Part shown: positions 1,955-42,052 of the stretch, one piece after another
Layout of the letters: every line of letters begins with the position of its first letter
Numbering within the stretch: the first letter of the stretch is position 1
NCBI GenBank assembly: GCA_964536725.1
Contig: CAZHYJ010000005.1
Coordinates: 3,084-67,083 of the forward strand
DNA length: 64,000 bases
Direction of reading: 5' to 3'
From: an uncultured Gammaproteobacteria bacterium
Lineage (GTDB): Bacteria > Patescibacteriota > Patescibacteriia > Magasanikbacterales > GWA2-37-8
Translations under genes and position numbers: made by a program
Notes under the pieces: model-generated
What the model saw: the letters and a program-made list of their open reading frames with translations, nothing else
What the model was told of the DNA's origin: nothing
The model's database searches: none

Positions 1955-1993
1955 CAAAAAAATATGCCGATCGGACTGATCGGCATATTTTTA
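1955..1993. terminator. Bidirectional intrinsic terminator between convergent genes
   Basis: An A-run, then stem atatgccgat/atcggcatat, then a T-run. It sits between the YkgJ (+) stop and the uvrA-paralog (-) stop. A near-identical stem occurs at 44029-44058. Confidence 0.6.
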
Positions 1994-4579
1994 TAACACT
2001 TTCTTTAAATACTGCCCAGTAAAAGTACCAGCCTTCCGTGCCACTTCTTCGGGTGTACCAGTCGCCGTCACTTCCCCGCCTTTGTCTCCACCCTCCGGAC
2101 CCAAGTCGATTATCCAATCGGCACATTTAATTACGTCTAGGTTGTGCTCAATTACCAACACGGTATTTCCCTGACTAACCAACCGCTCTAATACCACCAG
2201 CAATTTTCGCACATCCTCGTAATGCAGACCAGTGGTCGGCTCGTCTAACAAATACAAAGTTTTGGTAGTACCGTGTTTTGCCAACTCACGACTCAATTTA
2301 ATACGTTGCGCTTCCCCACCTGACAAGGTAGTGGCTGATTGCCCAAGAGTTAAATAATCCAAACCAACCTCATTCAATATTTTCAACTTGTCATAAATCA
2401 TCGGAATATCCCGAAAGAATTCCTCCGCATCTTCGATCGTCATCTCTAAAACGTCCGCGATACTTTTGCCTTTGTAATGAATCTGCAAAGTTTCTTGATT
2501 AAATCTTTTGCCTTTACAAATATCACACCCCACTTTCACGCTGGGCAAAAAATGCATTTCAATTTCCAAATATCCCCGTCCTTCGCAGTTTTCACAGCGA
2601 CCGCCAATACCGCGATGACTACCGTCTTTCGGTGGTAACGACGGAACATTGAAACTAAAACGACTAATACCAAACCCACGCATGCGTGCCTCCGGAGTGG
2701 CTGCAAACAATTCGCGGATAAAATCATAAGCCTTGGTATAGGTGGCAGGATTTGAACGCGGCGTACGCCCGATCGAACTTTGATCGATTGCGATAATCCG
2801 ATCCAAATATTCCATGCCTACAATTTCTTTAAATGCTCCAGTTGGTTTATCTAAATGATTAAATTTGTTAGACACTGCCTTTTCGATAATATCGTGCATC
2901 AAAGTACTTTTACCCGAACCGGACACACCGGTTAAACAAACAAGCCGGCGCAGCGGAATTTCAACAGTAATGTTTTTTAAATTGTGCTCCGTCGCACCTT
3001 TGACTTTCAACTTCGGTGTCGTATTGTCCACCTTACGTCTTTTTTCTGGTGTCGCGATTTTTAATTCACGACGTAAATATTTTCCCGTCAAAGATTTTTC
3101 CGCGCTACCCAAAACCTGACAAACTGGATTACTTGCTTTGTTTTTTGATAACAAACTTATCCGTGGTCCACTGTAAATGATTTCACCACCATGCTTACCT
3201 GCCCCTGGACCAAAATCTACTACCCAATCGCTGGCTAAAATTGTATCTTCGTCGTGTTCCACTACAATAATAGTATTACCAACATCACAAAGATTGCGCA
3301 ATGTTTTTACCAATTGATCATTGTCTTTTTGGTGCAAACCAATTGTGGGCTCATCCAACACGTACAAAGCACCGACCAATCGTGTGCCCACCTGACTGGC
3401 CAAACGAATACGCTGTGCTTCTCCACCTGACAAAGTGCCAGCGGTGCGGTTTAAAGTAAGGTAATGCAAACCCACATCATACATAAACTGCAGACGATTT
3501 TGAATTTCTTTTAAAACTGCTCCGGCGATTTCTTGGTCGCGACTAGGCAGTTCCATTTCTAGTTCCGCAAAAAACTCGCGGACATTGCGAATGTTCAAAG
3601 ACACCACTTCCCAAATATTTTTCCCGCCCACCCGTACGTTCAGTGCGTTTTCATTCAAACGTTTGCCATTACATTTTGGACAAACTTCTTCACTAAACAA
3701 TTCTTTCGTTCCTAAGCCAGTACAATATTCACAATATCCATATGGACTATTAAAACTAAACAAACGCGGCTCAATTTCTGGAAAACTAAAGCCATCCTTC
3801 GGACAAGAATATTCCGTCGAGAAAATTATTTCTTCCTTATCAGGAAAAATCGCGATACACAATCCATTCGCTAAATCCACTGCATTCTCCACCGCCTCAC
3901 TCAAACGCTTTTCAACCTCTGTGGTTAGACCATCGGATAATGAAATACGATCCACCACCACCGCGATATCATGCTTGTCGTTTTTACTCAAAAGCAAACG
4001 CTCGCGCAAACTTTTAAATTTCCCATCCACCCGCACTTCCAAATATCCCGAGTTATACAAATCATACAACATTTGATAATACTCACCTTTGCGCCCCCGC
4101 ACCACAGGCGATAAAATTACTAGTTCATCCTTGCCAGCATGTTTCTTAATTTTTTTAACAATCTGTTCATACATTTCATCTGTTGTCATCTTCTCAATCT
4201 TTGTGCCACACAACGGACAATGCGGCGCGCCGATACGTGCGAACAACACGCGGAGATAGTCATAAATTTCCGTAATGGTTGCTACAGTGGAACGCGGATT
4301 GGCGCTATGTGCTTTTTGATCAATCGAAATGGCTGGTGACAAGCCGTCAATTTCATCCACATCTGGTTTTTGCATGCCGCCCAAAAACTGCCGGGCATAG
4401 GCCGACAATGATTCGATATATCGTCTTTGACCTTCAGCAAAGATAGTATCAAACGCCAAAGAGGACTTGCCTGAACCAGACAAACCCGTAAAAACAATCA
4501 TTTGATTGCGTGGCAACTCCAAAGAAATATTCTTTAGATTGTGCTCGCGCGCTCCTTTGATGATAATTTTGTTTTGCAT
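1991..4579 (-). CDS. uvrA: UvrA-like excinuclease ABC subunit A paralog (862 aa) lacking the insertion domain
   Basis: Two ABC ATPase modules ([18 protein letters not shown]; signature LSGGE twice). Zn module CPLCG..CPKDG..YCEYC..CPKCNGKRL is present. Only about 13 aa separate CEYCTGLG from CPKC, against about 125 aa in the 936-aa paralog at 20622-23432. Confidence 0.85.
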   Translation of the reverse strand: MQNKIIIKGAREHNLKNISLELPRNQMIVFTGLSGSGKSSLAFDTIFAEGQRRYIESLSAYARQFLGGMQKPDVDEIDGLSPAISIDQKAHSANPRSTVATITEIYDYLRVLFARIGAPHCPLCGTKIEKMTTDEMYEQIVKKIKKHAGKDELVILSPVVRGRKGEYYQMLYDLYNSGYLEVRVDGKFKSLRERLLLSKNDKHDIAVVVDRISLSDGLTTEVEKRLSEAVENAVDLANGLCIAIFPDKEEIIFSTEYSCPKDGFSFPEIEPRLFSFNSPYGYCEYCTGLGTKELFSEEVCPKCNGKRLNENALNVRVGGKNIWEVVSLNIRNVREFFAELEMELPSRDQEIAGAVLKEIQNRLQFMYDVGLHYLTLNRTAGTLSGGEAQRIRLASQVGTRLVGALYVLDEPTIGLHQKDNDQLVKTLRNLCDVGNTIIVVEHDEDTILASDWVVDFGPGAGKHGGEIIYSGPRISLLSKNKASNPVCQVLGSAEKSLTGKYLRRELKIATPEKRRKVDNTTPKLKVKGATEHNLKNITVEIPLRRLVCLTGVSGSGKSTLMHDIIEKAVSNKFNHLDKPTGAFKEIVGMEYLDRIIAIDQSSIGRTPRSNPATYTKAYDFIRELFAATPEARMRGFGISRFSFNVPSLPPKDGSHRGIGGRCENCEGRGYLEIEMHFLPSVKVGCDICKGKRFNQETLQIHYKGKSIADVLEMTIEDAEEFFRDIPMIYDKLKILNEVGLDYLTLGQSATTLSGGEAQRIKLSRELAKHGTTKTLYLLDEPTTGLHYEDVRKLLVVLERLVSQGNTVLVIEHNLDVIKCADWIIDLGPEGGDKGGEVTATGTPEEVARKAGTFTGQYLKKVL

Positions 4580-5477: not shown

Positions 5478-7544
5478 CTATTTTTTTCCACCGACAATCT
5501 TGTTTTTACCCAGACCTTTCCTCAACACATCAACCTCGTCTCGCAAAATCGCCGCCAACTCAAACTCCAGATCTTTAGCCGCTTCACGCATCTGCTGTTC
5601 TTTTTCTTTGATAATTTCCCCCACCGGACGACCATCGCCCAGCAGATCTAATTCTAAAATATCTTTAATTCTTTCTTTGCCTTTTCTTTTACCTGCTTTT
5701 TCTTTGCTACCAGAAATGCCAAATTCTTCTAAAATATTTCTAATACTTTTCACGATCGTCTTCGGCGTAATACCATGTTTCTTGTTGTACGCCAACTGTA
5801 CTTTCCGGCGACGATCTGTCTCTTCAATCGCGCGTTTAATTGAACCAGTAATATTATCCGCATACAAAACCACCCGACCATTAGCGTTGCGCGCGGCACG
5901 GCCGATAGTTTGAATCAAACTAGTGGTACTACGCAAAAATCCTTCCTTATCTGCATCCAAGATCGCTACGAGCGACACCTCAGGCATGTCCAACCCTTCA
6001 CGCAAAAGGTTGACGCCGATAATTACATCAATCTCGCCCTTGCGTAGGGCGGCGATAATCTCAATTCGTTCAAGTGTTAAAATATCGCTGTGTAAATATT
6101 TTACCTTTACTTTCTTTTGTAATAAATAATCACTCAAATCTTCCGCCATTTTTTTAGTTAAAGTGGTAACCAATACTCGCTCGTTCACTTTAACGCGTTC
6201 ATCAATCATCACCATCAAATCTTCGATCTGCGATTTTACCGAACCATCTTTTTTGCCTGTCACCGGTCGGATGATCACCTCGGAATCAACCAAACCTGTT
6301 GGACGCACCACCTGCTCTACCACTTGTTGGCTAGCAGTTAATTCATATTCATCTGGAGTAGCCGAAACATATACCGTCTGTACCACCCGGCTTTCAAATT
6401 CTTCATAACGCAACGGCCGATTGTCTCGCGCACTCGGCAACCTAAACCCATGTTCCACCAAAATATCTTTACGTGCCTTGTCGCCATTGTACATCCCCCG
6501 AATCTGGGGCACGGTCATATGCGACTCATCGATCACGGTTAAGAAGTCCGGTGAACAATATTTAAAATAATCCAACAACGAAAAAGGCGGCTCACCTGCG
6601 GCGCGATTTTCAAAATGACGGGAGTAGTTTTCAATACCATTACAATAACCAAGATTTTGGATCATTTCCAAATCATAATTCACCCGACGTTTTAATCTCT
6701 CATATTCCAAAACTTTTCCTTCATCTTCAAATTGTTTTAATTGTTCTGCCAACTCCGCTCGAATCGAAAGAACCGCTTTGTCACGTGCCGCCGGACTAGC
6801 GACATAATGCCGAGCGGGAAAAATCCACGCATCCGAAACTTCGCGTTTTACTTTCCGCGTCACCGGATCCACCTGTTCAATCAAATCGATTCTCTCCCCC
6901 ACTTCGAAACGATAGATCATTTCTTCGTTCACCGGCATCAGCTCAAACACCTGGCCATGCAAACGAAAACTACCCCGTTTCAAATCACTGTTAGTTCTTT
7001 CAAATTGCATCTCCACTAATTGTGCCAACAATTCTTCGCGATTGAGCTTTTGATCAACTGTTAGATGCAAAACAATTTTTTCATATTCTGCCGGCGAACC
7101 CAAACCATATATCGCAGAAACTGAGGCGACGATAATCACATCCTTACGCATCAGCAAAGCTTGGGTGCAAGCATGGCGCAAACGATCGATCTCTTGATTG
7201 ATCTGTGCTTCTTTTTCGATGTAGGTGTCAGAGTGTGGTAGATATGCTTCAGGTTGGTAGTAGTCATAATAGGAAACAAAATATTCCACCGCATTGTCCG
7301 GAAAAAATTCACGGAATTCATTGCACAACTGCGCCGCTAAAGTTTTGTTGTGGGCGATGACCAAAGTCGGCAGCTTTACCTCATTAATCACATTGGCAAT
7401 CGTAAAAGTTTTACCCGAACCGGTAACACCAAGCAATGTCTGTTTAGACATTTTTTGTTTCAACCCTGCCACCAGCTTTTCAATCGCTTCCGGCTGATCA
7501 CCGGCGGGCTTCATTTTAGTTTGTAATTTAAAAATCTCTTCCAT
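5478..7544 (-). CDS. uvrB: Excinuclease ABC subunit B (UvrB)
   Basis: GVTGSGKTFTIANVI Walker A; helicase motifs; C-terminal UVR-like coiled coil (EQQMREAAKDLEFELAAILRDE). Confidence 0.93.
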   Translation of the reverse strand: MEEIFKLQTKMKPAGDQPEAIEKLVAGLKQKMSKQTLLGVTGSGKTFTIANVINEVKLPTLVIAHNKTLAAQLCNEFREFFPDNAVEYFVSYYDYYQPEAYLPHSDTYIEKEAQINQEIDRLRHACTQALLMRKDVIIVASVSAIYGLGSPAEYEKIVLHLTVDQKLNREELLAQLVEMQFERTNSDLKRGSFRLHGQVFELMPVNEEMIYRFEVGERIDLIEQVDPVTRKVKREVSDAWIFPARHYVASPAARDKAVLSIRAELAEQLKQFEDEGKVLEYERLKRRVNYDLEMIQNLGYCNGIENYSRHFENRAAGEPPFSLLDYFKYCSPDFLTVIDESHMTVPQIRGMYNGDKARKDILVEHGFRLPSARDNRPLRYEEFESRVVQTVYVSATPDEYELTASQQVVEQVVRPTGLVDSEVIIRPVTGKKDGSVKSQIEDLMVMIDERVKVNERVLVTTLTKKMAEDLSDYLLQKKVKVKYLHSDILTLERIEIIAALRKGEIDVIIGVNLLREGLDMPEVSLVAILDADKEGFLRSTTSLIQTIGRAARNANGRVVLYADNITGSIKRAIEETDRRRKVQLAYNKKHGITPKTIVKSIRNILEEFGISGSKEKAGKRKGKERIKDILELDLLGDGRPVGEIIKEKEQQMREAAKDLEFELAAILRDEVDVLRKGLGKNKIVGGKK

Positions 7545-18363: not shown

Positions 18364-18436
18364 GCGCCCATAGCTCAGGGGTTAGAGCACCGCCCTTATA
18401 AGGCGGGGGTCGATGGTTCGAAGCCATCTGGGCGCA
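18364..18436 (+). tRNA. tRNA-Ile with anticodon UAU (reads AUA)
   Basis: Hand-folded cloverleaf: acceptor gcgccca/tgggcgc, D stem gctc/gagc, anticodon stem ccgcc/ggcgg with loop CTTATAA (34-36 = TAT), T stem gatgg/ccatc with loop TTCGAAG, discriminator A. Body resembles a tRNA-Ile(GAU) sequence (…CTGATAAG… in the standard isoacceptor). No encoded CCA. Confidence 0.75.
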
Positions 18437-18438
18437 CT

Positions 18439-20467: not shown

Positions 20468-20474
20468 TTAAACT

Positions 20475-20508
20475 AAAAAATCCGGCCTTGTTGGTCGGAT
20501 TTTTTTAT
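20475..20508 (+). terminator. Intrinsic terminator after rplS
   Basis: Stem aaaaaatccggcc/ggtcggattttttt. The same stem family (aaatccgacc/ggtcggattt) recurs at 31676-31706. Confidence 0.75.
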
Positions 20509-20521
20509 TTCTTTTGGGTCT

Positions 20522-20603
20522 TACATTTTAAAAATATTTTATCTCGGAGCCGCGGTCGCTGTGACGCTCCCTAGGCTCCTCAATAAAAATTTTTAAAAAT
20601 GTA
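20522..20603. repeat. Palindromic intergenic element between convergent rplS and uvrA
   Basis: Outer inverted repeat tacattttaaaaat/atttttaaaaatgta around a GC core with nested ggagcc...ggctcc pairing. Confidence 0.5.
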
Positions 20604-20621
20604 GATACTACCTTACTACTC

Positions 20622-23432
20622 TTATAAATACTTTCCCGTCTGGGTTTTTTTGTTTTTCTTGATGTCAGCTGGCGTGCCTTCGGCAATTAATTGACCGCCG
20701 CCTTTGCCTCCCTCTGGGCCGAGTTCGATTACCCAATCGGAGTAGTTGATTACATCTACGTTGTGTTCGATTACCAAAACGGTATTCCCCTTCTCTACCA
20801 ATCGCTGTAACACACCCAAAAGATTTTGAATATCGGCAAAATGTAAACCAGTGGTTGGCTCATCTAAAATATACAAAGTCTTGCCCGTAGCTGAACGCAC
20901 CAACTCTGTCGCTAATTTTATTCTTTGCGCCTCACCACCCGACAATGTGGTCGCTGGCTGACCAAGGCGTAAATAACTCAAACCCACTGCTCGGAGCAGA
21001 TCCAGTTTGTCGGCCAAAGCTGGCACATCATGAAAAAATTTGTATGCTTCTTCCACTGTCATCTGCAAAACATCGGCGATATTTTTGTTGTGATGATGCA
21101 CCTCTAACGCTTCTTGGTTATAGCGCGAACCATTACATTCGTTACACACTACAAACACATCCGCTAAAAATTGCATCGGGATACGAACATAACCCTCACC
21201 GGCACAAGCCTCACATCGTCCACCACCTTTAACATTGAAACTAAACTTACCCGCATCATACCCGCGTAAGCGCGCCTCTTGCAAATTGGAAAACAGATCA
21301 CGGATTAAAGTAAAGATACCGGTATAGGTAGCAGGATTAGAACGTGGAGTCCGACCAATTGGTGCCTGATCTACAGCGATAACCTTATCAATATTGTCCA
21401 TTCCTTTTATCTCTTTGTGTTCGCCCGGTTCGTCTTTGGCACGATAAAACTTCTTGAGCAAGGCTTTAGACAAAACCTCACCAATCAGAGTAGATTTACC
21501 TGAACCAGAAACACCAGTAACACAAACCAATTTGCCGAGCGGAATACCGACAGTAATATTTTTTAAATTAAACGCTTTCGCCCCCACAATCGTCAAACTG
21601 TTTTTGTTTGGCTTTTTCAACTCACCTGCTAAATTCTTCTTACTGACCGGAGCTTTTTCCAAAGTAATTTTTTCTTGACCAGACAAAAACAGACCAGTTA
21701 AGGATGATTTATTTTTCTTCACCTCCGCCACCGTACCCGCCGCAATGATTTCTCCGCCATACACGCCCGCCCCTGGACCAACGTCGATTAGATAGTCGGC
21801 CGCTTCCATCATCGCCGCATCGTGCTCCACCACAATTACTGAATTACCCAAATCACGTAAAAACTTTAATGTTCCAATTAACTGCTGGTTGTCACGGGGA
21901 TGCAAACCCATCGAGGGTTCGTCCAATACATATATCACACCAGTTAAACCCGAAGACAACTGCGAAGACAACCGTACGCGTGTAATCTCACCACCAGACA
22001 AAGTATTTAGTGATCGGTCTAAACTTAAATATTCCAAACCTACTTTTTCTAGATTAGTTAAACGTGGTAATAATTCTTTAACAATCGGCGTAACGATCAC
22101 TGATTTAGCTTTGTCTACACCAATTTTTTTCAACACTACCTGATTTTCCGCCACACTCATACCAGACAAATCAGCGATACTGTATCCACCCAACTTTACC
22201 GCCAAAGATTCCGGACGTAACCGTTTGCCTTTACATTCTGGACACACCATCTCACGCATATATTGTTCTACTTCTTTGCGCACATAATCAGAGGTAGTCT
22301 GCAAATGACGCTCACGCAAATCATTTACCACACCAACAAAAGGAGCCGTTTTGTTTTCTATCGTATACACTTCCTTGCCCGTACCATACAAAATGGTCTC
22401 ACGCACATTTTCGGGTAAATTGTCCCAAGCAATATTTAAAGAAAAATGGTGCTTCTCAGCCACTACTGCCAACATCTTTTGATACCAAACTTGATTGCCG
22501 GTAATGCGAGTCCAGGGTTGAACTGCGCCTTCAGCCAAAGTTAAGCGTGGATTAGGGATAACCAAATTCACATCTACTTCCATGGTTAGACCTAAACCCG
22601 TACAACGCGGACAAGCACCATATGGACTATTAAAACTAAAACTACGCACATCCAATACTGGCAAAGTACGATCACATTTCGGACACAAACCAACAGTGGA
22701 AAAAAATTCTTCTGTTGTATTGTTTTTAGCAATCAAAAGACCGTTGCTAAATTCAAGTGCCAGATCAACTAATTTTGTCGGATTATCTTTTTTAATATCC
22801 TCAATCTTACCAACCATCACCGCAATATCATGAATTACTCCAGGTTTAAATGAGCGCTTGGCGAACTCCGGCAATTTCATCACTTCACCATTAATCATCA
22901 CCCATTCATATCCCGATTTTTCAATCTTGTCCAAAATTACTCGTTGCTCAACCTGACCACAACGCACCAGTGGAGAAAATATTGACACCGCCCCGCGCCG
23001 TGCCATCTTGCGCACATTCTCTGAAATTTCACCGGGAGTATTCGCCAAAACCCGCACCTTACATTCCGGACAATATTGTTCACCGGCGCGCGCAAAAAGT
23101 AAACGCAAATAATCGTAAATTTCTGTTACGGTTCCAACCGTCGAACGTGGATTTTGCGAAAATACTTTTTGATCAATGGCGATCGTCGGTGACAACCCAT
23201 CAATTCCATCCACATCCGGCTTGTCGCGCATTTCCATGAACTGGCGTGCATAGGCCGAGAGTGATTCAGCATAACGACGCTGTCCTTCAGCGTAGATAGT
23301 ATCAAATGCCAAAGAAGATTTCCCAGAACCAGACAAACCCGTGATTACCACGAGTTTGTTTTTTGGAATTTCGATGTTTACGTTTTTCAAATTGTGGACG
23401 CGCGCGCCACGAATAACAATTTTATCTGGCAT
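20622..23432 (-). CDS. uvrA: Excinuclease ABC subunit A (canonical, 936 aa, with insertion domain)
   Basis: Tandem ABC modules ([18 protein letters not shown]), three Zn modules, and about 125 aa between CPRCTGLG and CPECKGKRL. Confidence 0.93.
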
Positions 23433-27900: not shown

Positions 27901-27982
27901 GGGCAAGTGGCGGAATTGGTATACGCGTACGTCTCAGAAGCGTATGGGGAAACCCACAGGAGTTCGACTCTCCTCTTGCCCA
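27901..27982 (+). tRNA. tRNA-Leu with anticodon CAG (long variable arm)
   Basis: Acceptor gggcaag/cttgccc, 3-bp D stem, anticodon stem tacgt/gcgta with loop CTCAGAA (CAG), variable arm tggggaaacccac, T stem aggag/ctcct with loop TTCGACT, discriminator A. Confidence 0.75.
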
Positions 27983-28035
27983 CAAATTTATCTCTCCTCT
28001 AGTCGAAATGAGGGAAAAACTTCTTTTAATTTATT

Positions 28036-28148
28036 GTGAAATTTGTGTGTTTGGTATTTTTTGAGCGGGTTATGAAGCCCACGGCTTCATCCTTTCATCC
28101 TCGCGGATGAAAAAAGCGAAAAAATTACCAAACGCACAAATTTCACAT
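28036..28148 (+). repeat. Structured palindromic element, copy A of a 3-member family (possible cis-regulatory RNA or MITE), in the RNase J leader
   Basis: Outer stem gtgaaatttgtgtgtttggta / taccaaacgcacaaatttcac, conserved core TTTTTTGAGCGGGTTATG, hairpin atgaagcc-cac-ggcttcat, hairpin catcc-tcgc-ggatg, then AAAAAAGCGAAAAAATTA. Ends 14 nt before the rnj ATG. Confidence 0.7.
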
Positions 28149-28162
28149 CACATATTTAATTT

Positions 28163-29941
28163 ATGATTACAACTAATACGCGACGTGAGCCACGAAAATT
28201 CGTGCCCCGTCAAAATCCCCGCGCCCCACATGGACGCAACAATTATCAACCTTCGTTTTCTCGCTTTCGCAACGACGACACCAAACTAAAAGTTATGGTC
28301 GTCGGCGGACTAGAAGAAGTTGGTCGCAACTGCACATTCCTGGAATATGGTAATGATATCATCATTATCGATATGGGTCTGCAGTTTCCCGAGGAAGACA
28401 TGCCTGGAATCGATTACATCATTCCAAACATGAGTTATCTCAAAGGAAAAGAAAAAAACATCCGTGGCGTTATCATTACCCACGCTCACTACGACCACAT
28501 CGGCGGTATTCCCCATCTTATCCCAATGCTCGGCTATCCTCCAATCTATGGTTTGCCTTTGACAAACGCCATTATCAAGAAAAGACAGGAGGATTACAAA
28601 GGTTTAAAGCCACTTAATATTCACAATGTAAAAATTGATGACAAATTAAGATTGGGAAGTTTCGAGGTGGAATTTTTCCATTTGAACCATAACATTCCCG
28701 ATACAATGGGTATCGTAGTAAACACTCCAGAAGGAACAATCGTTCATACAGGTGATTGGAAGTTTGATTATCAACCAGTAGCGGGTGATCAACCAGCCGA
28801 CCTACAGCGCATTGCTCAAATTGGCGCAAAGGGCGTAATGGCACTCTTGACCGATTCCACCAATGCATCACAGCCTGGTCACCAAATGTCCGAATCAGAA
28901 ATCGGTACAAATATGGACGACATTATCGGCAAAGCTCCCGGTCGTTTGATTATCGGCACTTTTGCCTCTCTACTGTCTCGTATCAAACAAATCGTAGACA
29001 TCGCCGAAAAAACAGGTAAGGTGGTAGCGCTCGATGGTTTTTCAATGAAAGGCAATGTGGAAATCGCCAAAGAATTGGGCTACATGAAATTTAATCCTCA
29101 TACTTTTGTCGACCTGACCCGAGTAAAAGATTATCCGGATAACAAGGTGATCATCATCTGTACTGGCGCTCAAGGAGAAAAAAATGCTTCATTAATGCGC
29201 ATCGCTAATGGCGAACATCGTATTGTCACTTTAAACTCTGGCGACACTGTCGTTTTCTCTTCTTCGGTGATCCCAGGCAACGAACGCACAGTTCAACGCT
29301 TGAAAGATACGCTGTTTAGAAAGGGTGCTAATGTTATCCATTATCAAATGATGGACGTACATGCTGGTGGCCACGCTAAAGCTGACGATGTGAAGTTGAT
29401 GATTCGTCTTTTGAATCCAAAATATTTTGTGCCAATTGAAGGCAACCACTATTTACTTCATTACAACGCACGCGTTGCCGAATCGATTGGGTTTGATAAA
29501 GAAAAAATCTTTATCGCCGACAATGGCCAAGTAATGGAATTCAAATCCGGTGTAGGTAAATTAACTAAAGAAAAAGTTCCTTCCGATTATGTATTCGTTG
29601 ATGGCTTGGGTGTATCCGACGAAACCAATGTGGTTTTGCGTGATCGCCAAGTGTTGGCCGAAGACGGTATGGTCGTGGTGATTGCCACCGTTGATTCCAA
29701 AACTGGAAAATTAATCCAGAACCCCGACATCATTTCTCGTGGCTTTGTTTTCTTAAAAGAACATAAAGAATTGATTGAGGATTTACGTCATCGTGTTAAA
29801 AAGATTGTCACTGATTCCGACCCTCTGACTTGGGCGGATACTAATAACATCCGTAACAAGATCCGCGATTACGTTGGCCAATTTCTGTTTACCAAAACCG
29901 AAAAACGACCGATGGTGTTGCCAGTGATAATTGAGGTGTAA
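28163..29941 (+). CDS. rnj: Ribonuclease J
   Basis: Metallo-beta-lactamase HAHYDHIGG and beta-CASP/RMMBL regions. About 590 aa with an Arg-rich N-terminal extension. Confidence 0.9.
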   Translation: MITTNTRREPRKFVPRQNPRAPHGRNNYQPSFSRFRNDDTKLKVMVVGGLEEVGRNCTFLEYGNDIIIIDMGLQFPEEDMPGIDYIIPNMSYLKGKEKNIRGVIITHAHYDHIGGIPHLIPMLGYPPIYGLPLTNAIIKKRQEDYKGLKPLNIHNVKIDDKLRLGSFEVEFFHLNHNIPDTMGIVVNTPEGTIVHTGDWKFDYQPVAGDQPADLQRIAQIGAKGVMALLTDSTNASQPGHQMSESEIGTNMDDIIGKAPGRLIIGTFASLLSRIKQIVDIAEKTGKVVALDGFSMKGNVEIAKELGYMKFNPHTFVDLTRVKDYPDNKVIIICTGAQGEKNASLMRIANGEHRIVTLNSGDTVVFSSSVIPGNERTVQRLKDTLFRKGANVIHYQMMDVHAGGHAKADDVKLMIRLLNPKYFVPIEGNHYLLHYNARVAESIGFDKEKIFIADNGQVMEFKSGVGKLTKEKVPSDYVFVDGLGVSDETNVVLRDRQVLAEDGMVVVIATVDSKTGKLIQNPDIISRGFVFLKEHKELIEDLRHRVKKIVTDSDPLTWADTNNIRNKIRDYVGQFLFTKTEKRPMVLPVIIEV

Positions 29942-31148: not shown

Positions 31149-31155
31149 CCCCTTG

Positions 31156-31672
31156 TTCATTATTGGTAATCGCTCCCAAGTAATTGGGAAGAGGAAAGTC
31201 CGAACATCTCCAACGCAAGTTGGGAAAAAGACAGTGGGTAACGCCCACCCCCTAACCTGCAAAGTGTTAGGGCGGGAAAGCGGCACAGAGACAATACTAC
31301 TTTGTCCGCCGAAGCCTTGGCGAAGGAGGATCCAACCGACCCACCTCCGCTAAAGCTACGGCGGGCAAGGGAAAGGTGAAAAGCGCATGGAGGTTTTGGT
31401 TCTAGATCAAAGCTACTATGCCCCATCCACAGCAATGTGGAATGGTGCCAAGCCCTGTCTGATGCAAGAGCAGCCTTGCAACTGGAATATCTGGTTACAT
31501 GGAAAAGTTCGCTCGCGTTGATTCCGTTGGTAACAACGGGACAAGATAAATGATTACCTCCTGTTAAAAAAGCCAAGGCCAAAAGATACCGAGAAATCCA
31601 ATACGCGGAAAGTAGCGGTGTAAAATGGTTCGGCTCAACAACAGAAGACAAAATTCGGCTTATAATAATGAA
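31156..31672 (+). ncRNA. rnpB: RNase P RNA (bacterial type A-like), apparently enlarged
   Basis: Conserved blocks AGAGGAAAGTCCG (P4 5' strand), GGGTAACGCC-like, GGGAAAGGTGAAA, GCCAAAAGATACC, ACAGAAGACAAAATTCGGCTTA (P4 3' strand / CR-V). P1 pairs tcattatt with aataatga. Ends are approximate. The spacing between the conserved blocks is about 470 nt, against about 300 nt in E. coli M1 RNA. Confidence 0.85.
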
Positions 31673-31675
31673 ACT

Positions 31676-31706
31676 AAAAATCCGACCTTAATTGGTCGGA
31701 TTTTTT
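31676..31706. terminator. Intrinsic terminator after rnpB (possibly bidirectional)
   Basis: Stem aaaaatccgacc/ggtcggatttttt. The stop of the minus-strand ORF 31688-32047 lies inside the hairpin. Confidence 0.7.
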
Positions 31707-33558: not shown

Positions 33559-34681
33559 AACTATGCGAATCGCCCTAGTACATGATTATCTCGCGCAAGA
33601 TGGAGGGGCGGAGCGCGTCTTGAAAGCTCTCCAAGAAATTTGGCCTAGTGCGCCAATTTTTGTGTTGTTTCACGATCCCAAGAAAATCAACTACATCCCC
33701 ACTGAAAAAATTACTGAATCATTTTTAGCAAAAATGCCTTTTATTCGCTCGTCGTTCCCGTGGTACCTATCACTAATGCCGGTGGCCACTGAACGCCATG
33801 ATCTAAGTAAATTTGACATCGTCATTTCTTCTTCTAGTGTCTTCGCTAAAGGTGTAATCACCCCACCACACGCTTTGCACGTTTCCTACTGCCACACACC
33901 CGCCCGCTTCCTCTGGGCAGATGGTCACCACTATTTGTCTGATCTAAAGAGAAGTTGGTTGGTTAAAAAAATCCTACCCATCATAATGCACCGCCTGCGC
34001 CTCTGGGACCAAATGAGTACCCAAAGAGTCGATCGATTTATTGCTAATTCCCACACAGTTCGTCAACGTATTTTAAAATATTATCGTCGTGAAAGTGTTG
34101 TTATCTACCCGCCCGTGAATATTACCCCATCCTCAGTCAACCGAATTGGACAATATTTTATCGCCGGCGGACGCTTGGTCCCTTACAAACGCCTAGACAT
34201 TGCCGTTAAAACTTTCAATCGTTTAGGTTGGAATTTAAAGATATTTGGTACTGGACCAGAATTAAATTATCTCAAAAAAATCGCTAAACCAAATATCGAA
34301 TTTTTAGGAAAAATATCCGAAGAAGAAAAAGCTAATTTGCTTTCTGGCGCACGCGCTTTCATCCACCCGCAACTAGAAGATTTTGGCATCACCCCCATCG
34401 AAAGTATGGCCGCCGGCCGTCCCGTTATCGCCTATGGCCAGGGTGGCGCTACTGAAACTGTGCGCCATAATATTACTGGTGTGTTTTTTCCTGAGCAGAC
34501 TTGGGAATCGCTCTATGAGGCGGTAGTTAAATTTAAACCGTTTGAATGGGACACAGAAAAGATCAAAGAACACGCCACTAAATTTAGCACGGAAAAATTT
34601 AAGACGGAAATAAAAAAACAAGTCGAGGACTATTACGAGGAGTTTAAAAAAGGATGGAATCAGTGCCAGTTGATAAAGTAA
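33548..34681 (+). CDS. GT4-family glycosyltransferase
   Basis: C-terminal GT-B motifs (EDFGITPIESMAAGRPVIA). 11-nt overlap with the upstream sugar transferase gene. Confidence 0.85.
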   Translation: MLGKTMRIALVHDYLAQDGGAERVLKALQEIWPSAPIFVLFHDPKKINYIPTEKITESFLAKMPFIRSSFPWYLSLMPVATERHDLSKFDIVISSSSVFAKGVITPPHALHVSYCHTPARFLWADGHHYLSDLKRSWLVKKILPIIMHRLRLWDQMSTQRVDRFIANSHTVRQRILKYYRRESVVIYPPVNITPSSVNRIGQYFIAGGRLVPYKRLDIAVKTFNRLGWNLKIFGTGPELNYLKKIAKPNIEFLGKISEEEKANLLSGARAFIHPQLEDFGITPIESMAAGRPVIAYGQGGATETVRHNITGVFFPEQTWESLYEAVVKFKPFEWDTEKIKEHATKFSTEKFKTEIKKQVEDYYEEFKKGWNQCQLIK

Positions 34682-34860
34682 AAAACAATAAAATAGCCAC
34701 AGTTACCTAGCGAAGTTTTGCTAAAAAAATAATAAGTTTTTAGTAAAATATCATTGCTTGAGGCCTCGCGGCCGAGTTATGATATTTTACGTAAGAAAAC
34801 TTATTATTTTTTTCAAAACGTAGCGCGGTAACTGTGGTTATTTTATTGTTTTTTATCAAT
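34682..34860. repeat. Long (~180 bp) near-perfect palindrome filling the gap between convergent gene stops, with a GAGGCCTCGCGGCCGAG core
   Basis: Left arm aaaaacaataaaatagccacagttacc...aaaaaaataataagtttt pairs with right arm aaaacttattattttttt...ggtaactgtggttattttattgtttttt. Inner stem gtaaaatatcat/atgatattttac encloses gaggcctcgcggccgag. The same GC core occurs in element copy C (39391-39497). Confidence 0.65.
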
Positions 34861-37953: not shown

Positions 37954-38111
37954 ACCGTTTGCCTCCTGGCAAATCAGCCCACCAATTTGGGCATTGTACC
38001 GAACAAAATACTTCATAAATATTCTGATCGGTAAAATCCCCAAAAACACCATAAGTAACAGCTAAAGATAGCAAACTTTTGCCTTTTTGTCAATATACTG
38101 TTAAAATCAGA

Positions 38112-38219
38112 GTAGAAGTTACACGTTTGGTATTTTTTGAGCGGGTTATGCGCCAAGGCACATCCTTTCGCCCTCGCGGGCGAAAAAAGCGAAAAAATTA
38201 CCAAACGTGTAACTTCTAC
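38112..38219 (+). repeat. Structured palindromic element, copy B, in the GT4 gene leader
   Basis: Outer stem gtagaagttacacgtttggta / taccaaacgtgtaacttctac (perfect), core TTTTTTGAGCGGGTTATG, hairpin 1 atgcgcc-aa-ggcacat, hairpin 2 cgccc-tcgc-gggcg, AAAAAAGCGAAAAAATTA. Ends 8 nt before the ATG at 38228. Confidence 0.7.
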
Positions 38220-38227
38220 GAAACCAT

Positions 38228-39331
38228 ATGAAAATCGGCATCGACGCCCGCATGTATGGCCCTGCGCAAGGCGGCATTGGGCGATATATCGAACAATTAA
38301 TTAAGCAACTACAAAAAATTGACCAAAACAATCAATATATTTTGTTTTTACGTAAAAGCAATTTTGACGAATGCGAAATCACCAATTCAAATTTTAAAAA
38401 AGTATTAGCCGACATTCCCTGGTACAGTCTGAAAGAACAAACCGACTTTTGTAAGATAATCAAAAAAGAAAATATTGACCTGATGCACTTCCCCCATTGG
38501 AACGTGCCGCTGTTTTATCGTGGTAAATTTGTCGTCACCATCCACGATCTGATCATGTACCATTTTCCTCGCACCGAGGCTTCCACCCACGGACCAATTG
38601 TGTACTGGTTAAAAGACAAACTTCATCGTCTCATCTTATCCTCCGCCGCCAAGCGCGCTCAAGCCGTTATCGCCACCAGCGAGTTTACCAAAAACGACAT
38701 TGTTAAAGAATTAAAAATCAATCCAGAAAAAATTACCGTTACCTACCAAGCTCCATTTTCCCAGACTACCTCCATTGAATCACTCCCGACCGAAGTGAAG
38801 AAACCATACGCTTTGTATGTTGGTGCCGGATACCCACACAAAAATCTCCCTGCACTGTTGTGTGCCTGGAAAAAAATTGAAGGGATAAACTCCGAACTTA
38901 ACTTGGTGCTGGCTGGACGAAAGAATTTCTTCTATGATCAACTAACCAATTCCGTTGAATTTAAAAACTGCCAACGGATACAATATGTGTCCAACCCAAC
39001 TGACCCACAGCTCGAAACACTCTATCAAAACGCTGACCTCTTCGTTTTTCCTTCACTTTATGAAGGCTTTGGCCTACCACCACTCGAGGCCATGCTCCGC
39101 AATATACCCGTTGTATCTTCGAACACTTCTTGTCTCCAAGAAATTTTAGGCAACGCCGTTTGGTATTTTGACCCAACAGACACCGAAGACATGGCACGCA
39201 AAATTTTGATGACTTTTGACAACACTGATCTCCGCGACACTCTCCAAAAATCCGGTGTCGAACTACTAAAAAAATACTCTTGGGAGAAACTTACTTATGA
39301 AACACTTCACACTTATCAAAAAAGTGGATAA
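38228..39331 (+). CDS. GT4-family glycosyltransferase
   Basis: GT-B fold with C-terminal EGFGLPPLEAMLRNIPVVSS motif. Confidence 0.85.
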   Translation: MKIGIDARMYGPAQGGIGRYIEQLIKQLQKIDQNNQYILFLRKSNFDECEITNSNFKKVLADIPWYSLKEQTDFCKIIKKENIDLMHFPHWNVPLFYRGKFVVTIHDLIMYHFPRTEASTHGPIVYWLKDKLHRLILSSAAKRAQAVIATSEFTKNDIVKELKINPEKITVTYQAPFSQTTSIESLPTEVKKPYALYVGAGYPHKNLPALLCAWKKIEGINSELNLVLAGRKNFFYDQLTNSVEFKNCQRIQYVSNPTDPQLETLYQNADLFVFPSLYEGFGLPPLEAMLRNIPVVSSNTSCLQEILGNAVWYFDPTDTEDMARKILMTFDNTDLRDTLQKSGVELLKKYSWEKLTYETLHTYQKSG

Positions 39332-39390
39332 CTTCCCAGAAAAACAATGCCAAAAGTTGTAAATTGATGTATAATAATGATAACGAAAAA

Positions 39391-39497
39391 GAAATTACGC
39401 GTTTGATATTTTTTGAGCGGGTTATGAAGTCCACAGACTTCATCCCTGAGGCCTCGCGGCCGAGGAAAGTGAAAAAATTATCAAACACGTAATTTCT
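39391..39497 (+). repeat. Structured palindromic element, copy C, in the leader of the large surface protein gene
   Basis: Outer stem gaaattacgcgtttgata / tatcaaacacgtaatttc, core TTTTTTGAGCGGGTTATG, hairpin 1 atgaagtc-caca-gacttcat (compensatory relative to copy A), hairpin 2 cctcg-cggc-cgagg within gaggcctcgcggccgagg, then GAAAGTGAAAAAATTA. Confidence 0.7.
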
Positions 39498-39514: not shown

Positions 39515-42052
39515 TTGGTTAAAATGGCAAAGGCAAAAAAACGCCTACAAGTGCGCCGTTGCGCGGTCTGTAACAAGGTGGGACACAACAAATCCACCTG
39601 CCCAAAATACCTCGCAACACTCAAACCAGCAGATCATCCTCGCACGGTTAATTTTTTTGTTCATCACGTTCAACATTCCCCCGCTCAATCACCGCATGTC
39701 ATTGATTTAAAAAGAGAAACCTCAAGTCATTGGAACAACGTGGAAACCGTATCACCTACTGAATCCACCAACCCACTATATCATTTTTATCACGAGGCAA
39801 AATCCGAAGTGGCACAACCAAACCAAAGTCTTTTTTCTGCCCCACTACAAAATGCCGGGCGACCGGAAATGATTGTAGAAGAAAAAACTGTTGAACAGAA
39901 AAAAGTAAAATCATTACCCCAAAAAACAAAACGTCAATTTACTAACCCCTTTAAACTAATCGGCGGAAAAGTCAAAAATACCCACACACAAATTTCCAAC
40001 AAAATCAAAAACAGCCTTACCACTACCAATGATGCAGTTGTTAATACAAAAAATAATTTAAAAAAAGCGCTCCAACCAAATTTGAAAAAGATGGCTTGGG
40101 CAATTGCACTAATGATATTAGCAACCATCGTCCCTGGACCAACTTGGGGATATTATCAAAATCTAAAACACACTACCGCCAACATCGCCGCCGATGGTGC
40201 CGCCGGTTTTATGTCCCTTCAAGATTCCACGACCGCCTTGATGCAAGCCAACATGCCATTGGCACAGGCATCCATCTCCGAAGCGCTAAGCCGTTTTGAT
40301 AGTGCGGTCACCACCATGGAAACAAAAAATAAATTTCTCCAGAGTTTTGCTTCAGCATTACCCTTTATCGGTGACGAAGTTTCTAGCCGACAAAAATTAG
40401 TACTTGCCGGACAACAACTCACATTAGGTAACACATACTTACTCAAAGGCCTAACTGAAAGCCAAAACGCTCCCTCCTCCACTCTCACCGCGCGTGCCAA
40501 TATTATTATCACCCACTTACGAGCAGCCGTTCCCAACTATGAAAAAGCTTTAGAGAATTTGCAAGCCGTCAAACCCGATGTTTTACCTTTGCAATATCAA
40601 GGTGTGTTCAAAGATTACCGCACACTTTTTGCCTCCATCTTCACTGATTTAAAAAACTTGGCCAATTTAGGCGATGCTGTCCAAGAGGCGTTCGGCGGTA
40701 AAGGACTACGCCGTTATTTATTAATCTTCCAAAACGTCAGCGAGATTCGTGCGACTGGTGGTTTCATGGGTAGCTTCGCCATTCTCACTGTGAAAGATGG
40801 TGAAATTATTAATCTAGAAGTCCCCCCAAATGGTACCTATGATTTAAAAAAACAACTGGACATCTACGTCGAGCCACCTCGTCCCATGTTACTATCCAAT
40901 CGCCGTTGGGAATTCCAAGACGCCAATTGGTTCCCTGATTTCCCGGCTAGTGCCGAAAAAATTCTTTGGTTCTATCAACACAGTCGCAATGAAACCGCTG
41001 ATGGTGTGATTGCAATCAACTCCACTGTTTTGGAAAGAATTTTAGGAGTAATCGGCCCCGTGACTGACGAGAAGCGCGGCTTGGTTTTAACCCAAGAGAA
41101 TGCGATCAACACGATCCAACAAAAAGTAGAAACCTGGGACGCAGAGAAAAAAGATTATCGACCAAAACAGATTATCACCGACCTCTCCCAAACCTTCTTG
41201 GAATATTTTAAAAACATCGAACCACAAAATCTTTTACCACTGTTAGTAAACTTACAAGAATCGCTTGGACAAAAAGAAGTCCAGGTATATTTTACTGATT
41301 TCAAAACCGAAAGAGCCATCAAAGATTTTGGTTGGGGCGGACAAATTCTCAACACCAATGCCAATCAAGATTACTTGATGGTAGTAAACACCAACATCCA
41401 AGGACAGAAAACTGACGCCAACATCAAACAGGTTATCAGCCACCAAGCTGTGATTGCGGATGACGGTTCAATCACCGATACCGTGACGATTGCTCGCACC
41501 CACACTGGCATAAACGACGGTAGTTTGTATGGTGGAACCAATATCGACTACATTCGTCTGTATGTCCCACAGGGCACTGAACTAATCTCTGCCAACGGTT
41601 TTACCTGGCCTGAAGAAAAATATTTCCGCGCACCAGATAGCTGGACCAAAAAAGATGCATTTTTGGCAGAGATGGAAAAAGAAATTAAAATCGATGCCCA
41701 AAGCGGCACGCGTATCACGAACGAATTTAACAAAACAGCTTTCGGCAACTGGATAATCACCGAGCCGGGGCAAACTTCGCAGATTGAATTTGTCTATCGT
41801 ATCCCAAGCAATGTATTTTCGACTGAAAAACAATCTGATAAAGTCCAGAAAAAAACTGCACGTTACCAACTAATCACTCAAAGACAGTCTGGTTCAGAAA
41901 CTAGTTTTGAAAGTCAGATAATTTTACCGAATAATTTAACACCGGTTTGGAAAGATGGTCTTGAAACTGAAGTGGCCGCCAATGGCATGGTGATTGCCCC
42001 ACAACAATTGAAGAGTGACCGAATCTGGAGCTTGGTGGCTGAACAAAAGTAA
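39515..42052 (+). CDS. Large membrane-anchored extracytoplasmic hypothetical protein with an N-terminal Zn-ribbon-like motif (probable start ATG 39524)
   Basis: RRCAVCNKVGHNKSTCPKY gives a CxxC..H..C knuckle. One TM (WAIALMILATIVPGPTWGYY) and about 620 aa outside. No catalytic motif recognised. Confidence 0.5.
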   Translation: MVKMAKAKKRLQVRRCAVCNKVGHNKSTCPKYLATLKPADHPRTVNFFVHHVQHSPAQSPHVIDLKRETSSHWNNVETVSPTESTNPLYHFYHEAKSEVAQPNQSLFSAPLQNAGRPEMIVEEKTVEQKKVKSLPQKTKRQFTNPFKLIGGKVKNTHTQISNKIKNSLTTTNDAVVNTKNNLKKALQPNLKKMAWAIALMILATIVPGPTWGYYQNLKHTTANIAADGAAGFMSLQDSTTALMQANMPLAQASISEALSRFDSAVTTMETKNKFLQSFASALPFIGDEVSSRQKLVLAGQQLTLGNTYLLKGLTESQNAPSSTLTARANIIITHLRAAVPNYEKALENLQAVKPDVLPLQYQGVFKDYRTLFASIFTDLKNLANLGDAVQEAFGGKGLRRYLLIFQNVSEIRATGGFMGSFAILTVKDGEIINLEVPPNGTYDLKKQLDIYVEPPRPMLLSNRRWEFQDANWFPDFPASAEKILWFYQHSRNETADGVIAINSTVLERILGVIGPVTDEKRGLVLTQENAINTIQQKVETWDAEKKDYRPKQIITDLSQTFLEYFKNIEPQNLLPLLVNLQESLGQKEVQVYFTDFKTERAIKDFGWGGQILNTNANQDYLMVVNTNIQGQKTDANIKQVISHQAVIADDGSITDTVTIARTHTGINDGSLYGGTNIDYIRLYVPQGTELISANGFTWPEEKYFRAPDSWTKKDAFLAEMEKEIKIDAQSGTRITNEFNKTAFGNWIITEPGQTSQIEFVYRIPSNVFSTEKQSDKVQKKTARYQLITQRQSGSETSFESQIILPNNLTPVWKDGLETEVAANGMVIAPQQLKSDRIWSLVAEQK

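Follow-up and report, generated by a model that had tools for sequence, protein, structure and literature searches.

The window (the whole stretch of 64,000 nt that we analyzed) carries three complete copies of a structured element, referred to here as copies A, B, and C. Copy A (28035/28036-28148) lies between a tRNA-Leu gene (27901-27983) and rnj (28163-29941), the product of which was matched by Pfam to the RNase_J beta-CASP and C-terminal domains. Copy B (38112-38219) occupies the divergent spacer ahead of a GT4 glycosyltransferase gene (38228-39331), and copy C (39390/39391-39497) is located between this gene and a further gene (ATG 39524-42052), in whose protein Pfam names DUF4012. An earlier note had described a three-member family at these sites, and all three elements were found where it had placed them, on the plus strand and with lengths of ~108-114 nt. 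As it had also reported, they end shortly before a start codon, at distances of 14 (A), 8 (B), and 26 nt (C). The density in the window is roughly one copy per 20 kb.

The fold of each copy consists of a long basal stem (P1) that opens into a three-way junction, from which two hairpins (P2 and P3) extend. In copy A, the P1 arms (28035-28062 and 28120-28148) lead into a tandem G.A pair plus a GC/GC junction (28063-28066 with 28116-28119), followed by P2 (28067-28092, with the layout GGG-UU bulge-AUG..CAU-CC), P3 (28093-28112, loop TCGC), and the AAA strand J3/1 (28113-28115). Copy B has its P1 arms at 38112-38138 and 38193-38219, P2 at 38143-38165 with one C.A mismatch, and P3 at 38166-38185. 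In copy C, the corresponding positions are 39390-39414 and 39473-39497 for P1, 39419-39445 for P2, and 39445-39466 for P3, which contains a tandem G.A pair where copies A and B have two Watson-Crick pairs. The minimum free energy of copy A is -57.5 kcal/mol, and comparison with shuffled sequences gave folding z scores of -10.1 (A), -10.0 (B), and -7.1 (C). The conserved core claimed for the three copies is real: exactly three occurrences of its 18-nt part, TTTTTTGAGCGGGTTATG, were counted in the window versus 0.25 expected from shuffles, and three of the 3' core versus 0.07 expected.

The compensatory differences that had been quoted between the copies are present in the outer stem (tttggta/taccaaa versus tttgata/tatcaaa), in hairpin 1 (gaagcc/ggcttc versus gaagtc/gacttc), and in hairpin 2 (catcc/ggatg versus cgccc/gggcg). 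The broader statement that every stem changes in a pair-preserving way holds for all of these quoted changes, but some mismatches are left in P1 and hairpin 1. P1 has one G.U pair in copy A and one C.A mismatch in copy C, and hairpin 1 of copy B contains an uncompensated C.A mismatch. The basal stem, at 23-27 bp with a T-run/A-run, is longer than had been described.

A covariance model of the wider family (see below) scored copies A, B, and C at 98.4, 96.5, and 96.8 bits, respectively (E ~1e-22), and its search of the window found no further full copies. A nested palindrome of 177 nt between convergent genes (34679-34855, no strand assigned) scored 20.3 bits (E 0.016) and is possibly related. 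Its outer arms measure 49 nt (86% complementarity) and its inner arms 32 nt, and it has an A-run and a T-run on its flanks, as in a bidirectional terminator. The apical sequence, GAGGCCTCGCGGCCGAG (about 34757-34778), matches P3 of copy C exactly, but P2 and the junction are absent. The palindrome could have arisen from the element by rearrangement, or it could be a terminator with the same apical hairpin. A long AT-rich hairpin of a second kind, with 30-nt arms and a different GC-rich center, CTCGGAGCCGCGGTCGCTGTGACGCTCCCTAGGCTCC, lies at 20522-20603 (and 20470-20510). It comes directly after a terminator hairpin with the canonical A-run and T-run and could be a member of a different repeat family.

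With Rfam 15 at gathering thresholds, only the RNase P RNA and three tRNAs were matched in the window. The match to bacterial type A RNase P RNA (31154-31678) covers 525 nt versus 367 model positions, indicating that this gene carries about 150 nt of insertions. ARAGORN assigned a tRNA-Ile with the anticodon UAU at 18364-18437; in most bacteria, AUA is read instead by a CAU tRNA modified with lysidine. Two genes for UvrA-like ABC ATPases (1991-4579 and 20622-23432, encoding 862 and 936 aa) are found within 20 kb, and one of the two adjoins uvrB (5478-7544).

A wider family of structured elements

Public genomes, one genome per species, were scanned with gapped patterns. Copies were found in Patescibacteria MAGs and on one contig binned as a gammaproteobacterium, and the other matches were chance matches in coding sequence. 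The contig in question (L004, CAZXFG010000003.1, binned as "uncultured Gammaproteobacteria") holds a perfect family member, is the same sequence as metagenome locus L042, and is probably a misbinned contig of Patescibacteria. A partial core-like string, TTTTCCGAGCGGGTTAAAAAATG, is found ~70 nt upstream of its element. The pattern scan of metagenomes gave 78 loci. On these, 85 matches, nine of them without the exact search pattern, were found by a covariance model that was based on 66 distinct copies. A search of this kind had been proposed in the earlier note, and it recovered a wider family with covariation. About 90 further copies came from the pattern scans of public genomes and metagenomes, nearly all of them hosted by Patescibacteria or located on unbinned groundwater and sediment contigs. 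The viral contigs scanned yielded two matches, both by chance in GC-rich coding sequence.

Many contigs, L091, L092, L015, L028, L032, L054, L055, L058, and L070 among others, end inside the element, which is the behavior of an assembly-breaking repeat. Metagenome 3300009769 has short contigs that encode the GT4 protein of the window and terminate within copy B, and eight further loci of this metagenome are therefore probably extra copies from the same population. The view that the element belongs to no known RNA family was borne out, with no match in Rfam 15 at gathering or relaxed E-value thresholds; the best subthreshold matches of the element were to generic hairpins (23.6 bits versus a threshold of 55). 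In full-text searches of the literature, neither the core sequence nor repeats or MITEs of CPR bacteria gave a relevant record. The family is an undescribed, cleanly structured one in a poorly known phylum, of a generally familiar kind.

The element is non-coding and about 95-125 nt long. P1 is a near-perfect duplex with a median of about 20 bp and a maximum of 35 bp. Its inner 8-14 bp are conserved per subfamily, whereas the distal part is specific to a locus or lineage, being conserved only inside lineages, yet always self-complementary. At the inner end of P1, a T-run/A-run helix that includes a conserved pyrimidine-pyrimidine mismatch is followed by a tandem G.A pair and then by GC/GC. P2 follows the consensus GGG, UU bulge, AUG-stem-CAU, CC, and P3 is an 8-bp hairpin with a UCGC loop in which two pairs are either Watson-Crick (UC/GA) or tandem G.A. 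The third strand of the junction is a single-stranded AAA. In subfamily 1, for example in L016, L046, L053, and L074, P1 is flanked by an A-run and a T-run, with a TTAC motif at its conserved boundary. One copy (L072, 852-967) has an extra 22-nt hairpin, GCCTGCCTGCCGGTAGGCAGGC, inside the 5' strand of P3, indicating that P3 tolerates insertions.

A conserved structure with covariation is thus seen not only in the window but also on 66 distinct copies. In these sequences, 93% of the cells are standard pairs, compared with 69% in column shuffles and 40-47% when the partners are slid, and double changes were observed at 26 of 37 pairs. Rare variants of the junction also behave structurally. The tandem G.A pair (GA/GA) is replaced by UU/AA, that is, by two U-A pairs, in L016b; AUG/CAU becomes CGA/UCG in L021b; and a variant of the T-run helix changes UU/AA to CC/GG. 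The invariance of the 5' junction, GAGCGGGTTATG...CATCC, is inflated because the search patterns demanded part of it; in the 3' half, which was unconstrained in the metagenome scan, conservation is still >90%.

A small ORF starting at the conserved ATG was considered and rejected, as differences in loop length shift the frame and the covariation of ATG/CAT to CGA/TCG in L021b shows that this ATG is not a start codon. The core was also compared, by its strand layout, with the hammerhead, twister, and pistol ribozymes and the k-turn, and with the T-loop, the 11-nt receptor, and the L11-binding rRNA domain; each was rejected because its conserved strands differ from those of the core in order or polarity.

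Genomic sites and turnover

Context classes were derived from crude ORF calls around 87 copies, and individual cases were read directly as a check on these calls. Among the 66 classifiable copies, those between tandem genes comprise 27 antisense and 14 sense copies, and 17 and 8 copies lie between convergent and divergent genes, respectively. Measured from the edge of the model match, the median distance is 17 nt to the closest stop codon and 53 nt to the closest start codon; the family is mostly located just after stop codons. In L009, for example, an antisense element sits 2 nt past a stop codon and about 10 nt ahead of a gene whose product begins with MSLSVGIVGLP, presumably the start of a YchF-like GTPase.

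Comparison of orthologous sites revealed gains, losses, and changes of orientation. One such site is empty in L055, filled in the sense orientation in L071, which retains the ancestral terminator downstream of the element, and filled in the antisense orientation with a different P1 in L033. Another is a 30-nt hairpin-free spacer in L062 and carries the element in L021. Ordinary terminators in L066 and L030 occupy positions that are filled by the element in L074 and L026. Two genes of the window can be followed in the same way. The rnj ortholog in L016 (about 78% nucleotide identity) has tRNA-Leu upstream, as in the window, but the spacer between them lacks the element and has a short hairpin and then a T-run instead. 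An antisense copy is found in L016 right after the rnj stop codon, where the window has an ordinary 12-bp terminator hairpin. In L083, a GT4 ortholog has an inverted copy with an unrelated P1 in the equivalent upstream spacer.

Whole elements also recur at unrelated loci. In the pairs L024/L043 and L016/L051, the ~120-nt element, including a P1 of 20-27 bp, is the sole similarity between unrelated contigs, and copies A, B, and C of the window and those of L025, L036, and L050, which come from the same metagenome, are homologous along the entire P1. Cores with 100% identity occur on distal P1 stems that are unrelated to each other (L016/L030, L019/L038/L071, and L017/L074/L053), and the converse, similar P1 stems with different P2 and P3, is seen in L016/L051. 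At orthologous sites (L067/L069b/L014, L017/L062, and L027/L031), compensated changes in P1, P2, and P3 have accumulated at about the rate of flank divergence, and several such copies have been kept with an intact structure across 71-85% flank identity. This retention could reflect a host-level function rather than selfish persistence, and at individual sites absences could be deletions, not non-insertions, and inversions could have occurred via the element's own inverted arms.

We looked for the usual traces of transposition. No target-site duplication of consistent length or sequence was observed above artefacts; apparent duplications of at least 4 nt were present in 7 of 58 cases and were mostly self-complementary stem ends. 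The fetched loci contained no autonomous parent element or insertion sequence with the same ends, and the window had no convincing solo palindromes (P1 without the core). A phmmer search of about 510 kb of window and locus ORFs found no transposase or RAYT-like ORF, a weak result given that the IS608 TnpA and E. coli RAYT queries were approximate. Insertion into the loop of a pre-existing terminator was rejected as the general origin of P1, as L071 keeps a terminator beside its element and the L062 site is hairpin-free; for the A-run/T-run subfamily, this origin is possible.

The whole hairpin has been copied to unrelated intergenic sites and is gained or lost at orthologous sites in either orientation. 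We read the elements as a dispersed, multi-copy family of structured palindromic repeats of Patescibacteria (CPR), non-coding and MITE/REP/bcr1-like, and assign this reading a probability of about 0.6.

Strand asymmetry and alternative readings

The two strands of the element are not equivalent. The top strand, as the earlier note wrote it, is the more stable one in 51 of 66 copies, by 2.4 kcal/mol on average. Its stems contain 47 G.U versus 23 A.C pairs, and the tandem G.A motifs are also on this strand. The bottom strand gives good hairpins as well, with the P3 loop reading GCGA (a GNRA loop) and some P2 loops reading UUCG. The advantage of the top strand is equal in sense and antisense contexts (p = 0.98). 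Being the same whichever strand the neighbors transcribe, the asymmetry is a property of the element and not of host mRNA, and selection at the RNA level that follows the transcribed strand was rejected on these grounds. In a test of orientation against local GC skew, which is rough because local skew also tracks gene orientation, the top strand lay on the C-rich strand at 36 loci and on the G-rich strand at 27 (p = 0.31). Within the window (1-64000), the GC skew of the plus strand is negative in 15 of 16 4-kb bins, independent of gene orientation, and the entire window seems to lie on one replichore with the plus strand as the C-rich strand.

Since the asymmetry is independent of the neighbors' transcribed strand, the requirement for the fold would come from the element itself, through a strand-specific intermediate. 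We propose that a trans-acting factor that copies or maintains the element recognizes this folded intermediate, and that the fold would be kept for this reason. The likeliest intermediate would be single-stranded DNA, as for REP/RAYT or the ends of IS200/IS605, and less likely the element's own RNA. Duplication of the whole unit may have been followed by gene conversion between copies and by compensation that was either templated by the hairpin or selected. Gene conversion and hairpin-templated correction would account for the identical cores on unrelated basal stems and for the many compensated changes. At its resting sites, the element would produce a very stable transcript hairpin in either orientation, and only the strong hairpin would matter to the host. 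The A-run/T-run subfamily presumably occupies the position of a bidirectional intrinsic terminator.

A more specific proposal is that the core serves as the recognition module of a dedicated partner in Patescibacteria, such as an HUH-type or other nuclease, a recombinase, or a ribozyme or RNA-protein module, and that the basal stem is generated by copying. The partner could be a domesticated enzyme in a REPIN-RAYT-like association in these reduced genomes, and the basal stem could arise through inverted duplication or template switching at insertion. If true, this would be a mode of spread that has not been described for bacterial repeats, and we consider the proposal rather unlikely.

A functional structured RNA module that acts in many transcripts, as a global protein site, an exonuclease block, or a small self-cleaving ribozyme, with genomic spread being secondary, seems to us improbable to a similar degree. 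Its well-defined junction (invariant nucleotides, tandem G.A, UU bulge, AAA strand), the top strand being consistently the better folder, and the retention at orthologous sites described above are in agreement with such a module, as is the low number of decayed copies, about 1 in 95, although the pattern-based sampling favors intact cores. However, the top strand is antisense to both neighbors in the 27 tandem cases, and many of the spacers are too short for a separate promoter. The independence of the asymmetry from the transcribed strand and the lack of resemblance to a known ribozyme or Rfam family also argue against this reading.

The elements might instead be a host-maintained cassette acting as a bidirectional terminator or mRNA-end hairpin, inherited vertically, homogenized by gene conversion, flipped via its own inverted arms, and non-mobile. 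The proximity to stop codons (median 17 nt) and the ratio of 17 convergent to 8 divergent contexts point to such a role, as do the A-run and T-run that flank P1 in subfamily 1, the ordinary terminators of relatives at the same positions, and the P1 stems kept with compensated changes in the orthologous copies L067/L069b and L017/L062. Against this, the T-run is missing in copies A-C and in most of subfamily 2, and a terminator scanner found no terminator-like site at copies A-C. In L071 the element stands beside the retained ancestral terminator, and in L021 it sits where the L062 spacer has no hairpin. Finally, whole-element copies occur at unrelated loci, and a symmetric function leaves the conserved asymmetric core unexplained. 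We therefore regard a non-mobile cassette as doubtful.

The earlier note had favored a cis-acting 5' leader RNA, riboswitch-like or protein-binding, that would control the translation or stability of the rnj, GT4, and DUF4012 genes. All window copies are sense and end 8-26 nt before a start codon, the three-way junction combines conserved nucleotides with covariation, and promoter-like hexamers lie close upstream of copies B (38079-38107) and C (39347-39375), 5-15 nt from P1. The number of these hexamers is, however, not above shuffle expectation. Across the family, copies occupy all four contexts in both orientations, with only 14 of 66 being sense between tandem genes compared with 27 antisense, and the adjoining genes are unrelated. 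No recurrent neighboring protein family was found at the fetched loci beyond orthologous housekeeping contexts, and, where matched, the 27 window genes examined with Pfam belong to housekeeping families. The empty site upstream of rnj in L016 and the inverted copy upstream of the GT4 gene in L083 argue against a conserved regulation of either gene. It is true, as had been noted, that the three genes lack Shine-Dalgarno (SD) motifs, but this observation is uninformative: none of 41 putative window genes carries an SD-like motif (GGAG, GAGG, AGGA, or AAGG, 4-22 nt upstream of the start), so that SD absence is a property of the genome. The window leaders are A/T-rich, and translation initiation appears to be SD-independent genome-wide. 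The leader reading is thus largely refuted by context, and we consider it very unlikely. The structured mobile palindrome that the earlier note had offered as its second option is a better fit, except that the family shows no specific targeting of promoter-proximal sites.

A chance resemblance or a single recent triplication in this region, in favor of which the short distance of 1.2 kb between copies B and C could be cited, is already refuted by the about 90 further copies in many metagenomes and MAGs and by the 0.07-0.25 matches expected per window by chance, leaving it practically no probability.

As dispersed structured repeats, the window copies may still influence the transcripts in which they lie. 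If the promoter-like hexamers are real, copies B and C probably form the 5'-terminal stem-loop of an mRNA. Copy A would be cotranscribed with tRNA-Leu or lie just downstream of it. In Firmicutes, where RNase J carries out 5'-end-dependent decay, a 5'-terminal stem-loop stabilizes mRNA. By analogy, the stem-loops of copies B and C could act as a shield against RNase J-type 5' decay, which would be a side effect and not gene-specific regulation.

Patescibacteria have tiny genomes with few recognized mobile elements or regulatory RNAs. Many of their intergenic regions are shaped by the repeat described here, which also causes metagenome assemblies to break, and masking or annotating it avoids its misreading as a riboswitch. 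Three local copies with perfect covariation had suggested a leader RNA, a view that was overturned by the family-wide context; covariation alone cannot separate regulatory RNAs from structured repeats. The asymmetric core on interchangeable stems, with an asymmetry that is independent of host transcription, provides a handle for finding the factor that recognizes it.

Comparison with known repeat systems

The family shares features with several known repeats. With bcr1, a MITE-like element of ~155 bp, it has in common a dispersed, non-coding, intergenic occurrence and a closing stem with two hairpins. bcr1 has conserved ends and a TTTAT target duplication. In the present family, by contrast, the distal closing stem varies by locus, no target duplication was observed, and the host phylum is a different one; a sequence relationship to bcr1 would not be expected. 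bcr1 occurs in the Bacillus cereus group, and its RNA structure has been described as cruciform-like, having two stem-loops that are independent of each other (Delihas, PMC3184786).

The likeness to REP/BIME and REPIN sequences lies in the extragenic, multi-copy occurrence in either orientation, often right after stop codons, in a hairpin that is kept via compensated changes, and in the lack of a target duplication. REP sequences affect mRNA 3'-end stability and termination, and an HUH-enzyme partner (RAYT, TnpA_REP) acting on folded single-stranded DNA has been proposed for them. They are, however, simple GC-rich hairpins of 20-40 nt with a conserved 5' GTAG, whereas the present element is about 100 nt long and has a three-way junction. 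An overview of REP elements is found in PMC3184786, which also tabulates the bacterial MITEs of the ERIC, Correia, and RUP types and SPRITE, a terminator-like repeat of S. pneumoniae. The latter four resemble the present family as imperfect palindromes of about 100-130 nt in transcribed intergenic regions that form long RNA hairpins, are polymorphic for presence or absence, and can supply terminators or processing sites. They differ in that their terminal inverted repeats are conserved and that a TA or other short target duplication is usual, whereas here only the inner stem is conserved and a duplication is not detectable. As in MITEs in general, we found many dispersed non-coding copies at unrelated loci together with presence/absence polymorphism.

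The IS200/IS605-derived palindrome-associated elements (PATEs) likewise lack a target duplication and have strand-specific imperfect hairpins with conserved mismatches, and the TTAC motif at the conserved boundary of subfamily 1 adds to this likeness. In contrast to the present element, PATEs have separate left- and right-end hairpins, insert 3' of a fixed tetranucleotide, and show a replication-strand bias; here, orientation showed no GC-skew bias, and no TnpA was found in our weak approximate-query search. The absent link to GC skew does not favor an IS200/IS605-like lagging-strand mechanism.

Three-way-junction riboswitches, such as the purine class, also have a P1 that closes a two-hairpin junction, covariation in the stems, and conserved junction nucleotides. 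The present family differs from them in having no Rfam match, no consistent sense placement in 5'-UTRs, and no common gene class or expression platform, and its P1 is a near-perfect duplex of 20-35 bp. The GC-rich stem followed by a T-run that defines intrinsic terminators is present only in the A-run/T-run subfamily and not at copies A-C. Together, these comparisons indicate that the element works like the structured intergenic repeats and fits the definition of no classical MITE, REP, or IS200/IS605 derivative, its unusual modular feature being a conserved three-way-junction core on interchangeable basal stems.
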